Positions 41,946 to 55,088 of a DNA stretch of 64,000 nucleotides are shown piece after piece (the stretch's first letter is position 1; every line of letters starts with the position of its first letter). Location of the stretch: the NCBI GenBank assembly GCA_965602015.1, contig OZ271918.1, positions 3,744,001 through 3,808,000 of the forward strand. Direction: 5' to 3'. The DNA comes from Salinispira sp. Lineage in GTDB: Bacteria > Spirochaetota > Spirochaetia > DSM-27196 > Salinispiraceae. The position numbers and the translations under genes were made by a program. Below the pieces are notes generated by a model. The model ran no database searches and was not told where the DNA came from. It saw nothing but the letters and a program-made list of their open reading frames with translations.

Positions 41946-43118
41946 ATGGCAGCATCACACAAACAGGAATACGTTTTTACATCGGAGTCGGTAAGCGAGG
42001 GACATCCGGACAAGCTGGCCGACCAGATTTCCGACGCTGTTCTCGATGCCTGCCTGACCGATGATCCGGGAAGCCACGTCGCCTGCGAAACCTACACCAC
42101 GACGGGGATGGTGCTCATCGGCGGCGAAATCAACACTTCGACCTACGTCGACATCCAGTCGGTGGCCCGGGAGGTGGTGCGGGACATCGGCTACACCCAT
42201 GCGGACTACGGCCTCGATTTCGAAAGCATGTCGGTGGTCAACGTAATCCACAGCCAGAGTCAGGATATTTCCCAGGGAGTCGACGGCGGCGGCCTCTATG
42301 CCGGCCAGCAGGGCGCCGGAGACCAGGGAATGATGTTCGGCTTCGCCTGCAATGAAACCGAGCAGCTCATGCCCGCCCCGGTTAGTTACGCCCATCAGAT
42401 TCTCAGGCATGCCGCCGGATTGAGGAAGGGCGGCGAAATTCCCTGGCTGCGGCCCGACAGCAAAAGCCAGGTGTCCATCAGATATGAAGGATACACGCCG
42501 GTGGCCATCGAATCGGTGGTCGTCAGCCATCAGCACGACCCCGACGTATCCCACGGGGAATTACAGCAGACCATTATCGATAACGTGGTAAAACCCGTCC
42601 TCGAGCCCACGGGCTTACTCAGGGCGGACACAAAGTTCTATATCAATCCCACCGGCCGCTTTGTCATAGGCGGACCCCACGGCGACGCGGGCCTCACGGG
42701 GCGTAAAATTATAGTCGATACCTACGGCGGCATGGGCCGTCACGGGGGCGGGGCCTTCAGCGGCAAAGACGCCACCAAGGTGGACCGCTCGGCGGCATAC
42801 ATGGCCCGCTGCGTGGCAAAAAACATCGTTGCCGCCGGCCTGGCGGACCGGGCTGAAGTTCAGCTGGCCTACGCAATCGGCGTCCCCTTCCCGGTAAGCG
42901 TCATGGTCGACAGTTTCGGCACCGGCAACGCGGACGATTCGGCAATTGCCGATGCGGTTCAGGACATTTTCGACCTGACCCCCGCGGGAATCGTGAAGAC
43001 CCTCGATTTGAAAAGGCCCATATTCCGCAAAACCACCAACTACGGCCACTTCGGCCGGGACGGTTTTACCTGGGAGAACACCGACAAGGCAGAGCAGCTC
43101 GCCAGGGCGGTAAAATAG
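41946..43118 (+). CDS. metK: S-adenosylmethionine synthetase
   Basis: [42 protein letters not shown]. Confidence 0.98.
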
Positions 43119-43226
43119 GGCGGGGAGTCCTGCGCCTTTGCTGAAGGCGGCGGAGCCCCGCGAATCTTGTCCGCGAGGCCATTGCCCGCACGGCTCCTGC
43201 ACAAGCGGCCGGGGAGAACGAATCGC

Positions 43227-44234
43227 ATGTTGATCAAAGACATATTTGCCGGATGCATGGACGAAGGGAAAATTCCCTTCAGTTTCGAATTCTTTCCCCC
43301 AAAGACCGCCAGGGGTTGGGAAAAGCTCTACCGAAGCATGAAGGAGCTTCTGCCCCTGGAACCGGCCTATGTTTCGGTCACGTACGGAGCCGGTGGATCC
43401 ACCCGCGACAATACCCACGACCTGGTTGCCCGGATTCACGGCGACGGAATGCCGGTGGTCGCCCATTTGACCTGCCAGGGCAGCAGCCGGGCAGAAATCG
43501 ACAACATTCTAAAGCGATATGACCGGGAGGGCATCCATAATATCCTGGCCCTCCGGGGAGACCCTCCGGCTACCGGCGACAACGCCGTCGGGGGCACATC
43601 CGCCGCCAACAGCTCCCTAAGCAGCGGCGGCCATGGCCAGGCGAGCGCCGGTGATTTTCCCCATGCCGGCGACCTGGTGGCCTATATAAAGGAACGGTTC
43701 CCCCACTTCGGCGTCGGAGTTGCGGGGTTTCCCGAAGGCCATCCGGCTACCCCCAACCGCCTGAGAGAAATGGATTACCTCAAGGCAAAGGTTGACGCCG
43801 GTGCCGACTACATCGTCACTCAGCTCTTTTTTGACAACCGGGATTTCCTGGATTACCGGGAACGCTGCGCCCTGGCGGGCATTAAAATACCCATGATCGC
43901 CGGCCTCATGCCCATTACCAGCATTCGGGGAATGGAGCGGATGGCCGAGCTATCCGGCGGCAGCCGCTTTCCCGCCGACCTGGTCCAACGCTTAAAACGC
44001 GCGGTGAATAATAACGGAGGCAACTGGGGAATTTACGGCGCCCCGGAGAACAACACTCCCGAGGTGACCTCCGCGGTGTGCCGGGTGGGGGAGCATTGGA
44101 CTACCGAACAGATCAGCAATCTGCTCAACCACGGAGTAGCCGGCGTTCATCTGTACACCCTGAACACGTCAACGGCCTCCATCAGCATCATGCAGAACCT
44201 GGGGCTGGCAAGCTATTCGGTGCGGAATGAGTAG
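43227..44234 (+). CDS. metF: 5,10-methylenetetrahydrofolate reductase
   Basis: SFEFFPPK, SVTYGAGG, AHLTC, LALRGDPP, FPEGHP, TQLFFDN, HLYTLN. Confidence 0.95.
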   Translation: MLIKDIFAGCMDEGKIPFSFEFFPPKTARGWEKLYRSMKELLPLEPAYVSVTYGAGGSTRDNTHDLVARIHGDGMPVVAHLTCQGSSRAEIDNILKRYDREGIHNILALRGDPPATGDNAVGGTSAANSSLSSGGHGQASAGDFPHAGDLVAYIKERFPHFGVGVAGFPEGHPATPNRLREMDYLKAKVDAGADYIVTQLFFDNRDFLDYRERCALAGIKIPMIAGLMPITSIRGMERMAELSGGSRFPADLVQRLKRAVNNNGGNWGIYGAPENNTPEVTSAVCRVGEHWTTEQISNLLNHGVAGVHLYTLNTSTASISIMQNLGLASYSVRNE

Positions 44235-44310
44235 TTAGCTCCACACAATCTCTATTTCTCAACCCGGTTTCCCTGTTCAACCCGGGAAAACGCTAAACCT
44301 CTTTTGTAGT

Positions 44311-45750
44311 TTGAGGGAAAAGAGTGAGTTCCTGCGAACGAGTCCTGGCTCCCGCCAGAGTGTCCATGGTCCCAATGAAAAAACCCTCTTTGGAAAGTTT
44401 CGCCCGAATGTCCCCGAGGGAAACCTCACAGAACGGGGAGACAGCGCCACAATCACCAGCACTAAAATCACCATCAACCGGACAGGAACCTACCGCCACT
44501 ACAGCTGGGACCTGTTAAACCGCCTGGAAAACGTCGAAGAGCTCGATGAACACGGCAATCTGGTCGTGATAAAAGAATACGGCTATGATGTGAATAACCT
44601 GAGGATATGGGAGAAAAACCGACACGGCCAAATCACCCATTACGTCTTCGACCAAAAGGGCAACAGAATCGAACGGCACACAGAGGAAAGAAGCGAATAC
44701 TACATATTCAGAAACCTCCGCCACATCGCCAAACGGGTGGTTGACCACAGCACCAACACGGAAAAGACCTACTTCTACGGCACAGACCACCTGGGAAGTA
44801 CCGTACTGATGACCGACGAAGACGGCAACGAAGTCTTCTCAGCAGAAACCACCCCCTTCGGCGACTCGGTATCAGAATTAGGACCCATGGCCGACACAGA
44901 ACACCTCATGTACACCGGCAAGGACCTGGATGAAGATACCGGGCTGTACTACTTTAATGCACGGTGGTATGACCCGGGGACCGGGCGGTTTATAAGCGAG
45001 GATCCGGCGAGGTTTGGGTCGAACTGGTACCGGTATGCAGCGAGCAATCCTCTCAAATACTTCGATCCAACCGGACTGAATGAAGTGAGCTGGGGTACAA
45101 CGATCTTCGATGCAGGGGATTATCACACAGATACCCCTGAAAATGAGAAGTATGGAAATCTCGACGAGACAACGACAGAGGTTGCCACCTATGAGGAAAT
45201 TGCTGAGCAGATCAATCACGTCTCAACTGGTATTTCTGCCCAGGAAACGATTGCACAACAGACAGAGAAACTAGCTGAGCTATTACAACAAGATACCAGC
45301 AGCATGACGTTGGATGAATTTCTTGCCTACCAGCAAGAGTTAGAGGATTTGGCGATGGAGCTGCTCCAAGGAATCCAGGATTATGAGGCAGCGGGATATG
45401 AGCTCCAGGATTTGGCAGAAAGCAACCCTAATGGAAATATCAGATTGGACCCATCAGTTACTAAAAGTGCCGATCCATTTGAGACTTGGTGGGATAAATC
45501 GGATGGTGAGCTACTGACTGAAGCCGAGGCTAAAATACAAAAATGGTTCGGTATTTCAGAAATGGGACTTGGTGGTATTGGGGTTTTTACGACAGCATAT
45601 ACCGCTCCAGCATTATATATCATGGCAGATGGAGCTCATCTTCTTAATGAAGCTTTGAACGGCTATAAAGCAACCCCTGGTCTATTAGCAGTAGACTTTA
45701 TGATCCCCTATATAATGCTGAGTGATTATCCTTATACATCTCCATTTTAA
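44311..45750 (+). CDS. Orphan RHS core fragment + C-terminal toxin domain 1 (5'-truncated; rhs homology starts at 44419)
   Basis: TDHLGS, YTGKDLDEDTGLYYFNARWYDP, DP...NWYRYA..NPLKYFDPTG; GC drop after DPTG. Confidence 0.85.
   Translation: MREKSEFLRTSPGSRQSVHGPNEKTLFGKFRPNVPEGNLTERGDSATITSTKITINRTGTYRHYSWDLLNRLENVEELDEHGNLVVIKEYGYDVNNLRIWEKNRHGQITHYVFDQKGNRIERHTEERSEYYIFRNLRHIAKRVVDHSTNTEKTYFYGTDHLGSTVLMTDEDGNEVFSAETTPFGDSVSELGPMADTEHLMYTGKDLDEDTGLYYFNARWYDPGTGRFISEDPARFGSNWYRYAASNPLKYFDPTGLNEVSWGTTIFDAGDYHTDTPENEKYGNLDETTTEVATYEEIAEQINHVSTGISAQETIAQQTEKLAELLQQDTSSMTLDEFLAYQQELEDLAMELLQGIQDYEAAGYELQDLAESNPNGNIRLDPSVTKSADPFETWWDKSDGELLTEAEAKIQKWFGISEMGLGGIGVFTTAYTAPALYIMADGAHLLNEALNGYKATPGLLAVDFMIPYIMLSDYPYTSPF
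44419..45075 (+). repeat. rhs core duplicated at 50009..50665
   Basis: Constant offset of 5590 bp from ggaaacctcacagaacgg to the DPTG codons. Confidence 0.95.
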
Positions 45751-45762
45751 CGAGGAAGCAAA

Positions 45763-45981
45763 ATGAAAAATGTTTTCGTTATTTTTTTACTTTTTTACAT
45801 TGTATTTTTATTTGGAAATAGCATCCGGCACCTTTTAATTGGTTTGGGTAAAATAAAACATCCTATGTTTGATTCTGATGAAAAGCGTAGGTACATCTTC
45901 CGCAAGGGGATTATCGGGCTCTCTGGTGCAGTTCTATTCGGGACATTTATCATATATGTCGTAATTAGGGTTGTTTTCTGA
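45763..45981 (+). CDS. Putative immunity protein (72 aa, two TM helices)
   Basis: AT-rich small ORF directly after RHS-CT1, with GAGGA SD. Confidence 0.7.
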   Translation: MKNVFVIFLLFYIVFLFGNSIRHLLIGLGKIKHPMFDSDEKRRYIFRKGIIGLSGAVLFGTFIIYVVIRVVF

Positions 45982-46009
45982 TTGAATGACTTTGCAGACA
46001 ATAGTTAAA

Positions 46010-46077
46010 CCCATAAGACTGACTTGAGCTGCGCCGGATCCAATCCCGGCGTCAGCTCCAAGTATGCTTCTTATGGG
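46010..46077. repeat. attC-like imperfect palindrome, copy 1
   Basis: cccataag-actga-cttgagctg-cgccgg...ccggcg-T-cagctc-C-aag-tatgctt-cttatggg; second copy at 51612. Confidence 0.6.
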
Positions 46078-46516
46078 GGTTGAGCCGGCAAACGAGTTCT
46101 TTGAAATACGTCAGTCAGTGACGGACCCATCGAAGAGCATCTTGCTCCCGCTGAGCAAGAACTCTTCTGCTGACCGCTGATGCTTGCAGCAGCCTGCAGA
46201 AGAGAAAAACGTCAGACCACAAAACGCTTGAAGTCCACCCGGCTGCCGTTGAAGTTGACCAGGTAGCCCACCCGGATGCCCGAAAGCCTGAGGTAGTTTA
46301 TGAGCTGGGCTTCCATTGTAGCCTCTCAAATTAAATTGATCAAACCAGCATAGAAAATCTCACAAACAGTTAAACAATCTCTCATTCCACTTAGACCGGA
46401 AATTTTATCTGCCGACAAAAAAAGAGCAATGGTGTTGAAGTTTGCCGACTCCCCATTGCTCTTAAAACCTCACCCCCAAAGGGGGCAAATAAACGTTACT
46501 TATTTGTCGGATAGTT

Positions 46517-47014
46517 TTGGAAAAACTTCAAGCGCTTGGGAAACAGTTCCACTGGAAAAAACCTGAATGTTGTCCCGAGTGTGGAAGCATACGGCTATGG
46601 GGGCACGGCTTCGTTCTTCGGCAGTTTGTCGGGTTTGCCCAAGGACTGTGGATGAAGCGGTATCGATGTCCGGACTGCCATGGGGTTCATACCTGTAGGC
46701 CACAGCAGTTCTTGCCGGGGATGCAATATCCTGTTCAAACTCAAATCTCCAGCCTGGAAGCAAAGCTTGCAGGAAAGCCGTTCCTTCAAACTGTGTCGAG
46801 GCAGATCCAGCAGCATTGGTGGAAGACATTTCTCAACCACTGCCGCCGTAGCGGCAACTGGACTGCCCCACATTCGGTTTTCCTCCGCAGGCAGAGCGAT
46901 GATCAAATACCAGTAACAACCAGGCGAATATACCGTGAGATCTGGTCAGAAGCCTGCGTACCCTACCTGCCTTTTGCGCTGACAGTGAAACCGCGTCCAT
47001 TTAGCCTTGAGTGA
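46517..47014 (+). CDS. IS accessory Zn-finger protein (DUF6431-like)
   Basis: CPECGS..LWGHG...KRYRCPDC..VHT..P..FLP; TTG start uncertain. Confidence 0.7.
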   Translation: MEKLQALGKQFHWKKPECCPECGSIRLWGHGFVLRQFVGFAQGLWMKRYRCPDCHGVHTCRPQQFLPGMQYPVQTQISSLEAKLAGKPFLQTVSRQIQQHWWKTFLNHCRRSGNWTAPHSVFLRRQSDDQIPVTTRRIYREIWSEACVPYLPFALTVKPRPFSLE

Positions 47015-47043
47015 GAAAACGTATCACTCTCAAGGAGGAGAAA

Positions 47044-48327
47044 ATGGACAGAGAAAAGAAAGAAAAGATCGCAGTATTCCGCTTCGGGGTCATCTTTCCG
47101 CTTGTGGAGAAAGACCTACACCAGTATTGGGGAGAGAAAGAGCGAATCCTGCGGGAGCTGGTCAGCAAGGAATGGGAGATTCCCTTTTCAAACCGAAACT
47201 ACATCAGCAAGGCCACCATCCTGACCTGGGTAAAGCGCTACGAAGATGGCGGGCGGAAGATTGAAGCCTTGTTTCCTGAGAATCGCGGCGACAAGGGCCG
47301 GATGAGAAGCATTTCCGATGAACAAATCGATGCGCTCATGCTGCTTCGAAAAGAGCATCCAAAACTCTCCACCCCGCGTCTGGTTGAAATTGCTCAAGGA
47401 AACGGCGTCTTTCCGTCCGGAAAAGAGGTCTCCATGGCCAGCATTTACCGGCTCATGAAGATCCGCAAAGCCCAACGGGTCAAAGTCGAGTCTGACATGA
47501 GGAAGTTCGAGGTACAATTGCCCAACGACCTGTGGCAGTCAGACTGCATGCACGGTCCGAAAGTTCTGCATGGCGGGAAACTGAGAAAGACCTATCTGTT
47601 TGCAATCATTGACGACCATTCAAGGCTCATTACCCATGGCCAGTTCTACCTGGCTGAAACACTGGAAAATTACCTGGACTGCTTATGGACGGCGTTACGC
47701 AAGCGGGGAGTTCCCCGAAAGCTCTATGTCGATAACGGGGCATCATTTAAGGCGCACAGGCTCCAGTTGGGATGTGCTTCGCTGGAAATCGGGCTGCGCT
47801 ATGCACGGCCGTACCGACCCCAGGGAAAGGGCAAGATTGAACGGTTCTTTCGTACCGTACGTAGCCAGTTTATCCCCGAGCTGCCTGATGAACTTCCTCT
47901 GGATGAGATCAACCGGCTGTTTCACCACTACATTGAAAACGGTTATCACCAGAGGATCCATGGCGGTACGGGGCAGAAGCCCCTGGAGCGTTACCTGCAG
48001 GATGCCCATGCCTTGCGAAAAGCGCCGGAGAACTTGCCTGAATACTTTCGAAAACGCGAGGAGCGAACGGTAAACAACGACCGGACGGTGAAACTCGATG
48101 GCCGTTTGTATGAAGCCCCTGCGGGATTGGTTGGCATGAAAGTCGTCCTGCGTTTTGAGAATTACGACCGGATTGAAGTCTTTCTCGAGAATCAGTCAAA
48201 GGGATTCTTAAGGGATCTGGATCAGGGAGTGAACAGCCGCATTAAGCGGGACGGCACGGGTCCGGTCATGCCGTCGGCTTCGGGGGGAGCTCTTTTTGAA
48301 AAGCTGGGCTCAAAGGCAGGTAGCTAA
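47044..48327 (+). CDS. DDE integrase/transposase with Mu-transposase C-terminal-like domain
   Basis: LWQSD, IIDDHSR, LYVDNG, KGKIERFF; AGGAGG SD. Confidence 0.93.
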   Translation: MDREKKEKIAVFRFGVIFPLVEKDLHQYWGEKERILRELVSKEWEIPFSNRNYISKATILTWVKRYEDGGRKIEALFPENRGDKGRMRSISDEQIDALMLLRKEHPKLSTPRLVEIAQGNGVFPSGKEVSMASIYRLMKIRKAQRVKVESDMRKFEVQLPNDLWQSDCMHGPKVLHGGKLRKTYLFAIIDDHSRLITHGQFYLAETLENYLDCLWTALRKRGVPRKLYVDNGASFKAHRLQLGCASLEIGLRYARPYRPQGKGKIERFFRTVRSQFIPELPDELPLDEINRLFHHYIENGYHQRIHGGTGQKPLERYLQDAHALRKAPENLPEYFRKREERTVNNDRTVKLDGRLYEAPAGLVGMKVVLRFENYDRIEVFLENQSKGFLRDLDQGVNSRIKRDGTGPVMPSASGGALFEKLGSKAGS

Positions 48328-49133
48328 TGGATACGCTGCGCCACCACTTTGGATTCCGGCACAACCCGTTCCCGCAGAATGTAGCGGTAAAGGACCTGTA
48401 CCCCTTACCGGCATTGGAACCCCTGCGGCAGCGGGTGTTCTTTGCCCTGGAGCAGAAAGCCATTGCCGTCATCACCGGAGATGTGGGGTCGGGAAAGTCT
48501 ACGTCATTGCGCTATGTCTCAAGCAAATGCCATTCGAGTGAGTATGAACTGATTACCATTGTCGGCGGGAACTTCTCACCCATGGAACTGTACCGGCAGA
48601 TCCTGCTCACTTTCGGCATGAGCTATATGTCGTTCCAGGTATCGATCATGATCTCGAAGATCCGGGAGCTTATTCTGGAAATTGCATCCCGCAATGTCAT
48701 CCCGGTGCTGGTAATCGATGAGGCTCATCTGCTGAAACGGTCAGTGTTTACCCAGCTGCATACCCTTGCTCAGTTTGAATTCGATTCCAAACCGGTCATG
48801 CCGATGATTCTCTGCGGTCAGGATTTCCTGCTCGATCATCTGATGGCTAACTCAGTTCGGCCTCTGGCGTCCCGGGTGCTGGGCAAGAATCATCTGGAGT
48901 CTATTAAGAAGGAGGTGATGGAAGATTACCTGAATCATCACATCACCCTGGCCGGGGGAACAAAGAAAGCATTCAGTGATGAGGCGATCTTTGCCATTCA
49001 TCAGGGATCCGGTGGTCTCTTGCGGAAAGCCAACTCCCTGGCGAAAACGGCTCTCCTTGCCTGCGCCGGAGATGGTGGACAGACTGTTTCTGCAGAACAC
49101 GTCCGGGTCGCTTCCACCGAGATTTTTATGTAA
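48327..49133 (+). CDS. ExeA-like AAA ATPase (transposition helper)
   Basis: FGFRHNPF, Walker A GDVGSGKS, Walker B VIDEAH. Confidence 0.92.
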   Translation: MDTLRHHFGFRHNPFPQNVAVKDLYPLPALEPLRQRVFFALEQKAIAVITGDVGSGKSTSLRYVSSKCHSSEYELITIVGGNFSPMELYRQILLTFGMSYMSFQVSIMISKIRELILEIASRNVIPVLVIDEAHLLKRSVFTQLHTLAQFEFDSKPVMPMILCGQDFLLDHLMANSVRPLASRVLGKNHLESIKKEVMEDYLNHHITLAGGTKKAFSDEAIFAIHQGSGGLLRKANSLAKTALLACAGDGGQTVSAEHVRVASTEIFM

Positions 49134-49852
49134 ATGCTGCCCCTGCCGCGAATGCGGCAGGGGGTACCCTTCGTCAGTTTTACTTGTAAAATTGTTTGTC
49201 TGTACGTGCGAGGGTTAGGCTAATTTAATGTGCGAAGCTACACCATAACAGCCGTGAGCTTTGAAACGCTCTTGAGCTCGAGAATGACCTTGCCCTCGAC
49301 CACCAGGTCGGCAATGTATGCTCCGGCAAGCTCCCCTTTGTAATACACCGGATAGACCTTCTGCTGTTCCACAGTGAGATTTAACCTCCGGCACTCAATA
49401 ACCAGAGCCCCCTCGTACGCGCTTTCCAAAAGCCCGGGACCCAGGATGTTGTGCACCGAATACAACGCTCCCACCACCGTGTAGGACAGTTCCTTGAAAA
49501 GATACTCAGCCATGCTGACCTCCTTTTTTCAGGAGGCAGTCTCGAAGCGACGAGTGGTCAACGCCCCTGAGCGAAGCGCGGCTTGACCGCGAGGAGCGGA
49601 GAGATACACTTGAGAAAACCGGAGGAAGCCAGACAGCATAGCCCAAGGCATAGGGAAGAAGGCGCGAATCCTCGCGCCCCATTCATTTCTTTCTTTCAAC
49701 ATACCGTCAGCAGAAAAATCCCTTTTGCAAAACCGCCCCGGTCACCAAACCAAATCCGTGATTATTGGTGCTGATACGTGGTAGACCCCAACTCCCTGAT
49801 ACGTGGCTTTCTCTCATCCCCCCGACTTTAGAAAATTCTCACCGCCGAACTT

Positions 49853-51202
49853 ATGGGCCGCAACGAGTTCTACAACTACACCCCCGACGGCAACCGCTCC
49901 ATGAGAAACATCCTCGCCGGCAGCATGCAGAGTGAACAATACCAGTACTACCCCAACTCAGACCTGCTCCAATACGACGGAACCTACTACTATGCCTATG
50001 ATGAGAACGGAAACCTCACAGAACGGGGAGACAGCGCCACAATCACCGGCACTAAAATCACCATCAACCGGACAGGAACCTACCGCCACTACAGCTGGGA
50101 CCTGTTAAACCGCCTTGAGACCGTCGAAGAGCTCGATGAACACGGCAATCTGGAAGTAATAAAAGAATACGGCTATGATGTGAATAACCTGAGGATATGG
50201 GAGAAAAACCGACACGGCCAAATCACCCATTACGTCTTCGACCACAAGGGCAACAGAATCGAACGGCACACAGACGAAAAGAGCGAATACTACATCTTCA
50301 GAAATCTCCGCCACATCGCCAAACGGGTGGTAGACCACAGCACAAACACCGAAAAGACCTACTTCTACGGCACAGACCACCTGGGAAGCACCGTGCTGAT
50401 GACAGACGAAGAAGGCAACGAAGTCTTCTCCGGAGAAACCACCCCCTTCGGCGACTCAGTCTCTGAGTCAGGAGCCATGGCCGACACAGAACACCTCATG
50501 TACACCGGCAAGGACCTGGATGAAGATACCGGGCTGTACTACTTTAATGCGCGCTGGTATGACCCAACGGTGGGGAGGTTTATAAGCGAGGATCCGGCGA
50601 GGTTTGGTTCGAACTGGTACCGGTATGCCTCGCATAATCCGTTGAAGTACTCTGATCCGACAGGATTATGGGATTTTAATGCCGCATTAGGATTAGGGGG
50701 GGCTCTACAGATCCACATTGGTAATAATGACGGGAAATTTCAATTTGGGTTTAAAGTAGGCCTAGGCTTAGGTGCGCAAGTAAGTTTTTCTGCTCAAAAT
50801 CGAACTGTCAATCAGGCAGTTGGGACTACGCTATCTGGTTCAGTTGAGGCTGCAACGGAACTGGAAGTGGCTGGACCAGGTGCGGATATATCAATTCAGG
50901 TTTCTGGTGTCTTAGATTCAGATTTTAATATTGAGAATACATCAACCGCAGAAATGTCTTTTTCGGACCCCGCTACTGGGATGACAGGAAGTGTTTCAGT
51001 GGATTCGGATGGCATAATAGAGACTGAATTGGAACCCACTAATCTTTCATTTGGTGCGGGAGCACTTATTTTTGTCGGTTTCGGTGTAGATACCACGGTT
51101 GGAGAGGATTCTCTTCCCAAATCAAATCCTAAAATTGACCCTTCCGCTCCAGTTTTTGAATTCGACGTGAATGAAGATCCATTGGAAGAAGGAAATTTAT
51201 GA
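49853..51202 (+). CDS. Orphan RHS core fragment + C-terminal toxin domain 2
   Basis: YD-type repeats, the same core as copy 1, NPLKYSDPTG, then an unrelated Gly-rich AT-richer tip. Confidence 0.88.
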   Translation: MGRNEFYNYTPDGNRSMRNILAGSMQSEQYQYYPNSDLLQYDGTYYYAYDENGNLTERGDSATITGTKITINRTGTYRHYSWDLLNRLETVEELDEHGNLEVIKEYGYDVNNLRIWEKNRHGQITHYVFDHKGNRIERHTDEKSEYYIFRNLRHIAKRVVDHSTNTEKTYFYGTDHLGSTVLMTDEEGNEVFSGETTPFGDSVSESGAMADTEHLMYTGKDLDEDTGLYYFNARWYDPTVGRFISEDPARFGSNWYRYASHNPLKYSDPTGLWDFNAALGLGGALQIHIGNNDGKFQFGFKVGLGLGAQVSFSAQNRTVNQAVGTTLSGSVEAATELEVAGPGADISIQVSGVLDSDFNIENTSTAEMSFSDPATGMTGSVSVDSDGIIETELEPTNLSFGAGALIFVGFGVDTTVGEDSLPKSNPKIDPSAPVFEFDVNEDPLEEGNL

Positions 51203-51597
51203 AAATTACGAGGAAAAATCTTCGCCTATTAATTATTTTTGTAATTCTTTTAGTTGGTGTTGCGGTTATGCGATTATTCTTTATACAGGTAAAAAGTGAT
51301 TTAGAACCGTACATGACTGAAAACGCTGAAGTTACCGCCTATCTTAAAGATTTTTTTATTATGAATTTTCCAGATGTTGAAATACTAGAGATTGATTTTA
51401 TGGATGAAAAAAGCAAAGTTAATAATCGTCAAAATGTGATTCGCGTGATTTCTGAGTATGGAGTGAAAGCAAAAATCCAAAGTTATTCTTTTTTTGTCGA
51501 ATGGACACAAACTGACCACAACACCAACATAGAAAAAATTCAGGTTCTGAGAGAGAATGAATATATAGAACTATACGTTGATCAAGCATCTCAATAA
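51199..51597 (+). CDS. Putative immunity protein (N-terminal membrane anchor)
   Basis: 4-bp overlap with RHS-CT2; very AT-rich; single TM helix. Confidence 0.7.
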   Translation: MKITRKNLRLLIIFVILLVGVAVMRLFFIQVKSDLEPYMTENAEVTAYLKDFFIMNFPDVEILEIDFMDEKSKVNNRQNVIRVISEYGVKAKIQSYSFFVEWTQTDHNTNIEKIQVLRENEYIELYVDQASQ

Positions 51598-51611
51598 GAG
51601 TTAGGTTTTCA

Positions 51612-52526
51612 CCCCATAAGACCCGACTTGAGCTGCGCCGGATCCAATCCCGGCGTCAACTCCAAGTATGCTTCTTATGGGGGTTGAGCCGGCAAACGAG
51701 TTCTTTGAAATACGTCAGTCAGTGACGGACCCATCGAAGAACATCTTGCTCCCGCTGAGCAAGAACTCTTCTGCTGACCGCTGATGCTTGCAGCAGCCTG
51801 CAGAAGATAAAAACTTCACACTACAAAACGCTTGAAGTCGACCCGGCTGCCGTTGAAGTTTACCAGGTAGCCCACCCGGATGCCCGAAAGCCTGAGGTAG
51901 TTTATGAGCTGGGCTTCCATAACTGGAGTGAGCTTGGAAACACTTTTTAGTTCGAGGATGAGCTTTCCTTCAATTACCAGGTCTGCAATGTACGCCCCGG
52001 CAAGCTCGCCTTTGTAGTACACCGGATACACCTTCTGCTGTTCCACCGCCAGATTCAGCCTGCGACACTCAATAACCAGCGCACCCTCGTACGCGCTTTC
52101 CAAAAGCCCGGGACCCAGGATGTTGTGCACCGAATACAACGCTCCCACCACCGTGTAGGACAGTTCCTTGAAAAGATACTCAGCCATGCTGACCTCCTAT
52201 GGTTGCATAGGCGAGCAGGCAGCTTTGCTGCCGACCAGCCTTTTTTCAGGAGGCAGTCTCGAAGCGACGAGTGGTCAACGCCCCTGAGCGAAACGCGGCT
52301 TGACCGCGAGGAGCGGAGAGATACACTTGAGAAAACCGGAGGAAGCCAGACAGCATAGCCCAAGGCATAGGGAAGAAGGCGAGAATCCTCGCGCCTCATT
52401 CTTTCCTTTCTTACAACATACCATCAGCAGAGAAATCCCTTTTACAAAACTGCCCCGGTCACCAAACCAAATCCGTGAATATTGGTGCTGATACGTGGTA
52501 CACCCCAACTCCCTGATACGTGGCTT
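51612..52526. repeat. ~915-bp repeated unit (attC-like hairpin + GxxExxY + structured leader); other copy 46010..49809 minus the IS
   Basis: Homology starts at cccataag and ends at ctgatacgtggctt in both copies. Confidence 0.93.
51816..52187 (-). CDS. GxxExxY protein (PD-(D/E)XK nuclease-like)
   Basis: LGPGLLESAYE, YIADLVIEGKLILELKSV, QLINYL, GYLVNF; AGGAGG SD. Confidence 0.93.
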   Translation of the reverse strand: MAEYLFKELSYTVVGALYSVHNILGPGLLESAYEGALVIECRRLNLAVEQQKVYPVYYKGELAGAYIADLVIEGKLILELKSVSKLTPVMEAQLINYLRLSGIRVGYLVNFNGSRVDFKRFVV

Positions 52527-52991
52527 ACCAAGCTCATCGCTGCTGACCAAAAATCTACCATCTCGGCCAACACCAATCGGCAATGATCATTGGAGAAGCC
52601 GGAAGCGAATCGGCAAAAAGAATGGCAGGATCAGTGAAAATACAAGTCGGAAATTTTCGCCTCTACAAAATAATTCCATGAGTCCGAATAAAAGCAAGTA
52701 TCTGCTTGCGAGAATACAGAAGTTGATCCGTTTATTAATGACTATAATAAATATCTGCAATCTGCGTTTTTTGTGGTTCATTTTGATCACTGTTCTCTTC
52801 GCATTTGATAGAGTGAATATCTCGATTCGATTTACAGTACACAAGTGTTGTGTATTCAAATTGACGGTATAGTGAATAATGAGATGGCTTATCTTCCCAA
52901 TGATTTAGAGAGCAGAACACAAACCGTCTCCGCTGGGTCGGTAATAGCAAATGACGGCCTGCGTTAAAAATCCAGATCGGTTGAATATCGG

Positions 52992-53420
52992 CTAATAATC
53001 CCGCCCCAGCCTCCGGTACAAAAAAAACCCGCCGACGGCCAGAGCAATGAGGGCCAGAATGTACAGGGCATAAACCGACAGGACCAGGGTCCACTGCCAG
53101 CCGCCGGGCTCGGTGTCGCCGTGGGCCAGGCCGGTAAGAGTCGCAAGCAGCTGCATAAGCGGCAGAGCCGCAACCGCCGTTGCGGCGGCGGCGATGATCC
53201 AGGCCCTCATCTGTCCGCCCACTGCCGCGGCGATCAGCAAAAGCACGGCCCCCGCCAGTTCAACAAAAAACAGTTCGCCGGGCATGAGCCAGTCGAAAAG
53301 GAAGCGGCCTCGGCTGACGCTCACAATTGCCCCGAGAAGGAAAGGGGCAAGCAAGGGAAGCATTACCACAATGCCGCCACCCAGTGCCAGGGCGCGGGCG
53401 GTTTTGCGCTTCTTGTTCAT
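52992..53420 (-). CDS. Hypothetical membrane protein (about 4 TM helices)
   Basis: Hydrophobic ORF with host-like GC; start taken at MNKKRK. Confidence 0.7.
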   Translation of the reverse strand: MNKKRKTARALALGGGIVVMLPLLAPFLLGAIVSVSRGRFLFDWLMPGELFFVELAGAVLLLIAAAVGGQMRAWIIAAAATAVAALPLMQLLATLTGLAHGDTEPGGWQWTLVLSVYALYILALIALAVGGFFLYRRLGRDY

Positions 53421-53543
53421 GTATATTAATTTATCCCCTTTCTCGGCGATTTTCAGGGTTTTCTTCACAGTGACCTTCTCAACTGTTAGAATGGGTGCAG
53501 GCAGCCGGCGCAGGTCCGCGCGCCTTATAAACGGAGGGATGTA

Positions 53544-55088
53544 ATGAGCGAAGCGCAGGTGGTGAATCTGATATTATGCGGTGGAGTGGGGAGCCGGCTG
53601 TGGCCGCTTTCGAGAAAGCTTCTTCCCAAGCAGTTTTCCCGGATCCTCCGGGGACAAACCCTCTTCGAGCGCACGGTGGCCCGAAACCGCAAAGTTGCCT
53701 CATCCACCATGATCGCCGCCAATCGCCACCAGGCATTTCTCGCCTTTAATCAGATGGAAAACCTCGATATTCATGAGCATTTTGGTCTCATTGAACCGGT
53801 GGGCCGTAATACTGCGCCGGCAATCGCCCTGGCTTCCATGCTGGTGGAGCCGGAAACCGTTCTGCTCGTCACCCCGTCGGATCATCTGATAGCAAAAGAC
53901 GATGAATACGCCGCAGCGGTGCGGAACGCGGTTGATCTGGCGAAAAAGGGGCGCATCGTCACCTTCGGAATAGAACCTGAATATGCCGAGACCGGCTTCG
54001 GCTACATCGAAGCCGACAAACAGGCCGACGATCCCTACGCGGTCCGTGGATTTAGGGAAAAACCCGACGAGAAAACCGCAGCGGAATACCTCAAGGCCGG
54101 TAATTATTACTGGAACAGCGGGATGTTCTGCTTTCAGGCCGAGGTCTTTCTCAATGAACTCAAACATCACGCCCACGATGTGTACGAGGCCAGCTTCAAC
54201 GCCTTTAACAATGCCAACGGTCCCGACGCCCGCAGGAAGCGCGAACCCTGGTCGCCTATGGTTGAGGCCATGAACGCCATTCCGGCTATTTCCGTGGACT
54301 ACGCCGTAATGGAAAAGAGCCAACGCATCGCCGTGGTGCCCTGCGATATTGGTTGGAGCGACCTGGGCAGCCTGGACGCCCTGTACGACCATTACAGCGG
54401 TGTGTCGGAGCAGGTGGGAAGCGGCAGCCGGGACAGCGAGGGCCCCACGCGCAGGCCCGATGGGTCTGATAACGCATCGGCCACCGACACCGAACCGGTG
54501 TACATCAATGCCAAGCGAAACCTGGTAATCGGCGAGAAGCGCCAGGTCGCCCTCATCGATGTGGACGATCTCATGGTAGTCGAAACCCCCGACGCCCTGC
54601 TGATTTCAAAACGGGGGTCAAGCCAAAAAGTGAAAGAGGTGGTCAAAGAGCTGGAGGGCCGCGACGGTCCCGAGAGCCGGCTCACCGAGCGCTTCCCCAC
54701 CATCGAACGGCCCTGGGGGAAATACACCACGCTGTACGTGGGCGAGCACTACATGGTTCGCCGGCTGGAGGTTAAACCCGGCTGCCGCACCAGTCTGCAG
54801 CGCCACTTCAAACGGGAAGAACTGTGGACCGTGGTTGCCGGCCAGGCCCTGGTTCAGCTCGAAAAAAGCCGCAAGCACTACTACCCCGGCCAGGGAATAG
54901 AGGTGCCCATGGGCGCATTCCACCGCCTGGAAAACCCCGGCGATGAACTGCTGGTTATTGTGGAAACGCAAATGGCCATGGTGCCCGCTGAGGAGGGCGC
55001 CACCGAGGCGGTGCCGAAAAGCGAGCTGCCGAAACTTGACGAAACCGATGTGGACCGGGCGGAAGACGATTACCGCTGGCTGAAATAG
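53544..55088 (+). CDS. manC: Mannose-1-phosphate guanylyltransferase / mannose-6-phosphate isomerase
   Basis: ILCGGVGSRLWPLSR..PKQF, EPVGRNTAPA, PSDH, SVDYAVME, WSDLGS, RPWG cupin. Confidence 0.95.
   Translation: MSEAQVVNLILCGGVGSRLWPLSRKLLPKQFSRILRGQTLFERTVARNRKVASSTMIAANRHQAFLAFNQMENLDIHEHFGLIEPVGRNTAPAIALASMLVEPETVLLVTPSDHLIAKDDEYAAAVRNAVDLAKKGRIVTFGIEPEYAETGFGYIEADKQADDPYAVRGFREKPDEKTAAEYLKAGNYYWNSGMFCFQAEVFLNELKHHAHDVYEASFNAFNNANGPDARRKREPWSPMVEAMNAIPAISVDYAVMEKSQRIAVVPCDIGWSDLGSLDALYDHYSGVSEQVGSGSRDSEGPTRRPDGSDNASATDTEPVYINAKRNLVIGEKRQVALIDVDDLMVVETPDALLISKRGSSQKVKEVVKELEGRDGPESRLTERFPTIERPWGKYTTLYVGEHYMVRRLEVKPGCRTSLQRHFKREELWTVVAGQALVQLEKSRKHYYPGQGIEVPMGAFHRLENPGDELLVIVETQMAMVPAEEGATEAVPKSELPKLDETDVDRAEDDYRWLK

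Follow-up and report, generated by a model that had tools for sequence, protein, structure and literature searches.

The hairpin at 46010-46077 (+) of the window (the whole 64-kb stretch of DNA that was analysed) raises the question of whether a structure built like the attC site of an integron, but with AAG/CTT in place of the triplets AAC/GTT, is a working recombination site and, if so, for which enzyme. The original prediction, made from the sequence alone, had read it as an R-L-L-R site of attC architecture, present twice, lying in a window with no integrase and possibly used by a different enzyme.

In copy A, the outer (R) boxes are CCCATAAG (46010-46017) and CTTATGGG (46070-46077), the first inner (L) box is CTTGAGCTGC (46023-46032), and a terminal stem of 5 bp, GCCGG/CCGGC (46033-46037 and 46046-46050), encloses an 8-nt loop. 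The second L box (46051-46062) reads G-[T]-CAGCT-[C]-CAAG, where the brackets mark the two bulged bases of that arm; all these elements are read on the + strand. In the fold, the bulged bases are T46052 and one C (46058 or 46059), both on the 3′ arm of the + strand. The outer stem comprises 8-9 bp, the spacers of 5 and 7 nt are unpaired, and the inner stem is broken by the two bulges. For single-stranded DNA, the folding energies are -23.2 kcal/mol (z -7.2) in copy A and -20.1 kcal/mol (z -5.7) in copy B, at 51612-51682 (+), and 0 out of 200 shuffles were as stable in either case. The hairpin folds strongly on each strand, and the boxes, spacers, two unpaired bases and terminal stem that had been described from the letters were confirmed by sequence and folds alike. 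Read in the sense of the neighboring PDDEXK_3 gene, the inner boxes are TTGGAGCTGAC and GCAGCTCAA.

The count of two copies proved to be an understatement. Genome-wide BLAST returned eight, that is, six further CCATAAG..CTTATGG hairpins, distributed in three loci: an array of four on the + strand (1.9247, 1.9301, 1.9353, and 1.9380 Mb), an array of two on the - strand (3.3446 and 3.3483 Mb), and the + strand pair of the window. The outer boxes are CCATAAG/CTTATGG, with the triplet AAG/CTT, in all eight. As had been noticed for the two window copies, the homology between copies starts at the outer box, namely at the C run opening the hairpin, and this applies to all eight, the DNA to the left being unique in each. 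Rather than being an isolated repeat, the hairpin forms the outer (left) edge of a ~915-bp conserved spacer. The order within this spacer is the hairpin, three more hairpins, a PDDEXK_3 gene on the opposite strand, ~340 bp, and the start of a 5′-truncated rhs fragment. The clusters of two, four, and two sites lie each on one strand with no integrase nearby. Neighboring sites are separated by units of 2.7-5.6 kb, of which the larger owe part of their length to insertion sequences (IS). For comparison, CALIN elements, as described by Cury et al. (2016, PMC4889954), comprise at least two attC sites that share a strand, are spaced by <4 kb, and have no neighboring intI. In seven of the eight copies, the hairpin is directly followed on its 3′ side by GTTGAGC (46079-46085, +), a perfect match to the heptamer GTTRRRY; as neither a conserved counterpart on the opposite flank nor an equivalent in relatives was seen, chance may account for it.

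Membership in the attC family was examined with a covariance model built from 28 resident canonical attC sites alone, without the window hairpins, and run with filters off over both strands of the whole 64-kb window. The two hairpins were the best 2 of the 25 matches listed, both on the + strand and both over model positions 1-116. Copy A scored 19.4 bits (E 0.0012) and copy B 16.3 bits (E 0.014). These values are modest, as the third-ranked match, a terminator-like hairpin of no relation to the site, already attains 15.1 bits. Among the matches listed for the two strands of the window, none fell on the hairpins in reverse orientation. The other six copies matched the same model at 12.8-18.8 bits in the corresponding orientation; the range for all eight is 12.8-19.4 bits (E 0.0012-0.15 per search) in a single orientation, to be read against the 15.1 bits of the unrelated hairpin. 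In the model alignment, AUAAC stands opposite AUAAG and GUUAU opposite CUUAU, and the L boxes of the resident sites recur in the hairpin. The systematic departure from attC is limited to the flipped pair, from AAC/GTT to AAG/CTT (C:G at the crossover). A shifted register, with a canonical AAC/GTT at the end of the outer stem, was considered and rejected, as the triplet must adjoin the central spacer and both the model alignment and the MAFFT column of the relatives (see below) agree on the register used here.

The inner half of the hairpin is found far beyond this genome. A metagenome scan for the two inner boxes with any 8-38 nt between them gave at least 118 stretches, representing at least 99 distinct sites. 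At least 26 of the sites listed carry a 7-nt R-box pair at attC spacing (≤1 mismatch), 24 with GTT and 2 with ATT; among the sites listed, more look canonical by eye with looser pairing, and the remainder look like chance or coding matches. An intI homologue lies within the 2.5-kb flank at no fewer than three loci. The inner boxes of the hairpin, including the bulges, are letter-identical to those of canonical metagenome attC sites, some of them beside intI. The inner half, bulges included, therefore belongs to a widespread attC type.

These results bear directly on the idea of an ordinary hairpin, that is, a bidirectional terminator or an RNA-processing hairpin whose likeness to attC is coincidental. 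Its position between convergent genes and its strong fold on both strands would suit such a role, yet no T-run follows the hairpin on either strand, the terminator scan makes no call, and no Rfam match was found at relaxed thresholds in window positions 43000-55000. Moreover, the attC model matches one strand only, and a coincidence would have to account for inner boxes that agree letter for letter with canonical attC sites whose R boxes, too, are proper ones. An ordinary hairpin, which was already disfavoured, is thus a very improbable explanation.

The features of attC that are present comprise the R/L hairpin with its unpaired spacer, the extrahelical bases on the 3′ arm, a variable terminal structure, and the position 3′ of a cassette ORF. 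The conserved AAC/GTT triplet is absent, all eight copies having AAG/CTT, and for that reason the site is classed as an attC variant rather than as a member. The R-L-L-R reading of the original prediction therefore finds support both in the model of resident sites (eight of eight copies, one orientation) and in the identical inner boxes of metagenome attC sites: judged by its sequence, the hairpin is an attC-type site with a flipped crossover pair. From the orientation of the model alignment, the + strand of the window would be the bottom strand. Bottom strands of known sites are described as having an extrahelical T-N6-G (PMC3518468). The bulges here are likewise on the 3′ arm, as T-N5-C on the + strand, but the second bulged base is a C, unlike the G reported in that source to set the strand choice.

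Which integrase might serve these sites is answered in part by the rest of the genome. It is correct that the window has no integrase, since none of the five tyrosine recombinases of the genome lies at 3.744-3.808 Mb, nor is any near one of the three arrays. The statement fails for the genome as a whole, in which an integron integrase (intI) is encoded at 1,743,026-1,743,967 (380 bits, against a cut-off of 265). The different enzyme that had been suggested is not needed, as the genome has its own intI and IntI1 is described as tolerating a changed first base when both partners carry it (PMC2811028).

The resident attC arrays are located at 1.716-1.741 Mb, upstream of intI, and at 3.441-3.456 Mb. 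Genome-wide, 34 canonical sites were collected by a simple regular expression, mostly from these two arrays; 28 of them were aligned and all 28 carry GTT. The array near intI was detected by a repeat finder, having been missed by a crude AAC/GTT hairpin scan around intI. The second array (3,440,645-3,456,061) holds at least 12 canonical attC sites far from intI, some identical to sites of the main array. The variant sites share with the resident ones the outer boxes CATAA-/-TTATG, the L boxes CTTGAGC-GC and GTC-GCTC-AAG, and the orientation of ORF to site. They differ in length and in the triplet: the sites of the array upstream of intI have 100-157 nt, extra conserved inner boxes, and AAC/GTT, whereas the variant has 68-71 nt and a 5-bp terminal stem. 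Resident cassette ORFs lie on the strand opposite the written attC strand. Since the latter matches the + strand of the window, a PDDEXK_3 gene on the - strand followed by the site represents the normal order of ORF and then attC. No signal comes from the strand of replication: relative to the origin (~3.30 Mb) and terminus (~1.40 Mb) given by GC skew, the template strand that carries the bottom strand is not the same for all three arrays.

The surroundings of the two window sites follow one plan. The first orphan Rhs C-terminal module (44311-45750, +) consists of a core fragment, homologous from 44419, and then a variable toxin tip. It is followed by a 72-aa ORF (45763-45981, +), the candidate immunity gene of the module, with no family match, which ends 28 nt before site A. 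The second module (49853-51202, +), again a core fragment with a variable tip, is followed by a 132-aa ORF (51199-51597, +), likewise a candidate immunity gene with no family match, which ends 14 nt before site B. Beyond site B there are three further conserved hairpins (51700-51742, 51744-51764, and 51766-51808; folds with z about -6). Their counterparts in unit A are at 46096-46204, by coordinates transferred from copy B, and the first holds the box GTTCTTTGAAAT (46096-46107). The middle hairpin of unit B (51744-51764, -) was flagged as weakly terminator-like by the terminator scan. The PDDEXK_3 (GxxExxY) nuclease gene (51816-52187, -; 123 aa; PF13366, 125.5 bits) has its 3′ end facing site B, and the conserved spacer upstream of it (52188-52526; 49514-49809 in unit A) leads to the next Rhs fragment. 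In unit A, the gene is severed by an IS21-like insertion of 2927 bp (46317-49242, +), with a transposase of the rve family (438 aa, 47011-48327) and an AAA helper (268 aa, 48327-49133). The 3′ piece of the gene is left at 46224-46316 (-; profile positions 84-116) and the 5′ piece at 49243-49513 (-).

Several smaller elements accompany this plan. The box GTTCTTTGAAAT (TTTCAAAGAAC in the sense of the gene; 46096-46107 and 51700-51711 in the window) lies 10-20 nt outside the site, whatever gene adjoins, and is also present in one related genome (G099, below) and at two of the three sites of another (G100). Sites F and H retain only the hairpin and the region of this box (about 115-128 nt). A terminator-like hairpin of 51 bp with a T-run (52194-52244), just upstream of PDDEXK_3, is absent from unit A and single in the genome; in the sister species it occurs in at least ten places (92% identity). 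Of the IS21-like element, the genome carries at least four more copies that are identical or nearly so; one of these lies within the main integron array and another within the second attC array.

The frequent neighborhood of the PDDEXK_3 gene could mean that the site serves another protein, with either this nuclease or a non-integron recombinase recognising the hairpin. In cassette orientation, the gene preceding the site is PDDEXK_3 in six of the eight cases, always at a distance of 130-135 nt, which is longer than in resident cassettes, and as part of a four-hairpin module; at site F the gene is deleted. However, site H adjoins a toxin-antitoxin pair (Gp49-like with its antidote) and no PDDEXK_3, as do several of the sites in relatives. 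No inverted pair of arms was found bracketing the gene at 51816-52187. A partnership with PDDEXK_3 is therefore not required. The sequence of the site is, besides, accounted for by its attC homology, and none of the five tyrosine recombinases is near any array, so that use by another protein appears improbable. The opposite flank is uniform, all eight sites abutting there the terminal gene of an orphan Rhs toxin-immunity module. Small integron-style cassettes thus alternate with such modules in the three arrays.

Sites of the same kind with other first bases were reached through the close relatives of the PDDEXK_3 protein. The site motif was found in 3 of 41 such loci, which come from two other spirochaete genomes (G099 and G100). 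G099 has two sites with GCCGAAC/GTTCGGC (first triplet base G) and one with GCCGAAT/ATTCGAC (A). Three sites in G100 and one at a metagenome locus (L153) have CCGAAT/ATTCGG (A), compared with the eight CCATAAG/CTTATGG sites of the window genome (C). In the MAFFT alignment, C, G, and A share one column before an invariant TT. The L boxes and the bulges are kept in G099, G100, and L153. As for covariation across the 15 sites, the terminal stems are of four unrelated, fully paired sequences, and the outer stems are perfect over 6-9 bp in 13 sites and have one mismatch in the other 2, their changes being compensated.

The layout in the relatives is similar: one side of the site faces a convergent gene, the last of an Rhs module, and the other side is occupied by PDDEXK_3 or by a toxin-antitoxin pair (Gp49-like with an HI1420-type antidote, BrnT, or RelE). 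A RelE-type pair with an ATT site, far from any integron platform, is located beside a ZIP transporter gene in G099. An intI above the curated cut-off is present in the window genome, G099, and G100, and the resident attC sites beside intI in G100 are canonical GTT sites of the same L-box family. On one contig of G099 (C163), fragments matching the integron-integrase profile lie ~10 kb from the lone ATT-type site.

Other searches were narrower in outcome. A search with the DNA of the whole unit in 40 relatives did not return the hairpin; the only piece that recurs is the 51-bp one upstream of PDDEXK_3, in the sister species. No similarity to the four-hairpin module was found downstream of the 41 PDDEXK_3 relatives. 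Pattern searches for the site covered 99 genomes from the order and a sample of 401 from the phylum, and matched in the window genome only; with no match in the remaining 98 and 400, respectively, the comparative depth is small.

The Rhs component of the arrays is made up of fragments. The genome has seven Rhs_assc_core matches, all in ORFs of 443-549 aa inside the three loci. Each fragment has ~270 conserved residues, the core motif, and a distinct toxin tip, followed by a small ORF; the variable tips are without paralogue in the genome. No longer or full-length rhs gene related to the fragments was found in the genome by tblastn with the fragments, and the RHS_repeat profile had no match. 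All seven Rhs core-ending ORFs are 5′-truncated orphans. Each begins with a start codon of its own and is preceded by a promoter-like site (49583-49610 and 52300-52327). Rows of 5′-truncated rhs core fragments with differing tips and immunity genes are familiar from the orphan Rhs C-terminal toxin/immunity arrays of Enterobacteria. The arrays described here resemble them in having truncated core fragments, each with a different tip and immunity gene, but differ in that an attC-type site and then a small cassette gene come after each module.

The ends of the arrays bear on their dispersal. Their common left end is the same nucleotide of the rhs fragment (GGAAACCTCAC...), at 44419 of the window and at 1922866 and 3349903 of the genome, and it abuts unrelated housekeeping genes (MTHFR, purD, and a rhodanese-like gene). 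As this end is within the rhs fragment and not at a site, dispersal of the arrays did not proceed by crossover at the sites. The right ends are near CCTGATACGTGGCT in two of the three arrays. In the sister species, the MTHFR and manC flanks are ~225 bp apart, from which it follows that the 9.3-kb array of the window is absent there; the intergenic DNA is too diverged between the two species for the exact insertion junctions to be read. At the end of the Rhs array of the 3.34-Mb locus (locus 2), beyond a transposase of the IS256 family, there is a canonical GTT attC site (3,339,520-3,339,637; 79.5 bits) in the opposite orientation to the variant sites. It comes after a PIN/VapC cassette and has a HicB gene on its other side.

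The PDDEXK_3 copies are of two types that cut across the loci, with B, D, and G at 96-98% identity and A, C, and E at 95-98%. The order of the types is common to the arrays other than that of 3.34 Mb (loci 1 and 3), and the first and second units of these two correspond. The pattern of identity in PDDEXK_3 and rhs fragments fits whole-array duplication. Homologous recombination between conserved segments of core fragment and spacer can account for the arrays, and the pairwise identities of rhs fragments and PDDEXK_3 are compatible with both site-specific and homologous exchange.

From this derives the most substantial alternative, namely that the site is a relic. A cassette of PDDEXK_3 and attC would once have landed downstream of an Rhs locus and then have been copied as a passenger by homologous recombination, with displacements of toxin modules, the site itself being no longer recombined. 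The flipped pair may then even have been selected for immobilisation, and the hairpin would at most insulate convergent transcripts. The site always lies within the conserved spacer of ~915 bp with flanking rhs core fragments, which offer ample homology of the RecA type; an array end inside an rhs fragment and the shared order of PDDEXK_3 types are also as expected from such copying. In addition, degenerate attC sites in arrays distant from the integrase have been proposed to mark stabilised cassettes (Cury et al., PMC4889954). Against this stands the persistence of the site. The bulges, the unpaired spacer, and the L boxes are maintained over three genomes and one metagenome contig, while the terminal and outer stems turn over and remain fully paired. 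The adjoining gene varies (PDDEXK_3, HigB/HigA-like, BrnT, and RelE pairs) and the site stays, and intI is present in all three genomes that bear the site. A mere insulator is disfavoured, since features specific to attC are kept that insulation does not need; the missing T-run and terminator call also speak against it. We consider the relic a serious alternative, though less likely than the reading preferred below.

The preferred reading is that of an attC-type site with the flipped pair AAG/CTT that would likely be folded from the + strand and be recombined by the intI of the same genome only with sites carrying the same flip; its probability is put at roughly 0.55. The precedent is the work of Frumerie et al. 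(2010, PMC2811028), in which the first base of GTT was changed on both attC arms and tested with IntI1 in attC x attI1 recombination. As reported there, a change in one partner only lowered recombination 10^3-10^4-fold, and the same change in attC and attI1 restored it fully, except for G to T, where a 20-fold deficit persisted; in vitro, cleavage was obtained with both the G to A and the G to T substrates. Section 18 of that article describes GTT as absolutely conserved in all integrons characterised by 2009, and suggests that it is kept for exchange between integrons and not by the mechanism.

Applied to the present sites, IntI would bind the folded bottom (+) strand and cut between AA and G. 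By analogy with AA/C, the predicted cut is between A46016 and G46017 in copy A and between A51619 and G51620 in copy B. The base exchanged at the crossover would have to match in both partner sites, and from this requirement we infer that the CTT sites form a private exchange set. Such a pool would be insulated from the GTT sites of the main integron by a factor of about a thousand or more, a figure taken from a partner-matching rule measured for IntI1 and attC x attI1, which is a different integrase and a different pair of sites from the attC x attC exchange considered here. A similar insulation would apply to the ATT sites of relatives. Recombination inside the pool would excise, delete, or reorder units, each of a cassette gene with an Rhs toxin-immunity module. 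Four public sequencing runs of one sample, stored as contigs, held no informative excision junction. Two joints reported from them, with sides of 23-30 letters, were rejected as evidence of excision, as they fit paralogous copies or graph overlaps.

Among described systems, the closest in form are the CALIN elements. As presented by Cury et al. (2016, PMC4889954), these share the R-L-terminal stem-L-R hairpin with an unpaired central spacer and two bulges on one arm, the site placed after a cassette ORF in the correct orientation, clusters of several sites that share a strand, and an intI at another position of the same replicon. The arrays described here differ from that account in the triplets AAG/CTT, in units of 2.7-5.6 kb, far larger than usual cassettes, with an antisense orphan Rhs module and a conserved spacer, and in that most of the unit is repeated and not the site alone. 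The engineered first-base mutants have the same position changed on both arms with pairing kept, and such sites are predicted to recombine only with partners of the same base (PMC2811028). Those were laboratory constructs, whereas here the change is natural, fixed in eight sites, with A in relatives, and the behavior is a predicted one. The SALIN/attG route (Loot et al., 10.1101/2022.09.11.507474) likewise concerns attC cassettes far from the integron platform. It is described for canonical GTT sites inserting at GWT sites of the genome, and in that form accounts for neither the changed first base nor the link to Rhs. No natural set of non-GTT attC sites was found among the articles listed on integrase-less clusters and non-canonical sites, as judged by titles and abstract openings, and no publication joining attC, integron, Rhs, and immunity was found.

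A natural and consistent set of sites with C at this base (A in relatives) would match in nature what was predicted from the engineered sites (PMC2811028). The three nucleotide states in otherwise homologous sites make the idea of a private pool directly testable. Tools that give weight to the AAC/GTT columns may undercount such sites. More tentatively, and as something possible rather than expected, the integron machinery may be split into private channels by the crossover base, in which case the resident integrase could act on the C-type set (A-type in relatives) to shuffle, delete, or reorder spare Rhs modules among the three arrays, unmixed with the GTT integron. The fixed arrangement of attC-ended cassettes with orphan Rhs modules in three spirochaete genomes suggests a route for the reshuffling of toxin repertoires. 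If true, the re-targeting shown only with engineered sites would have a natural case, and integrons would for the first time be linked to the diversification of polymorphic toxins.
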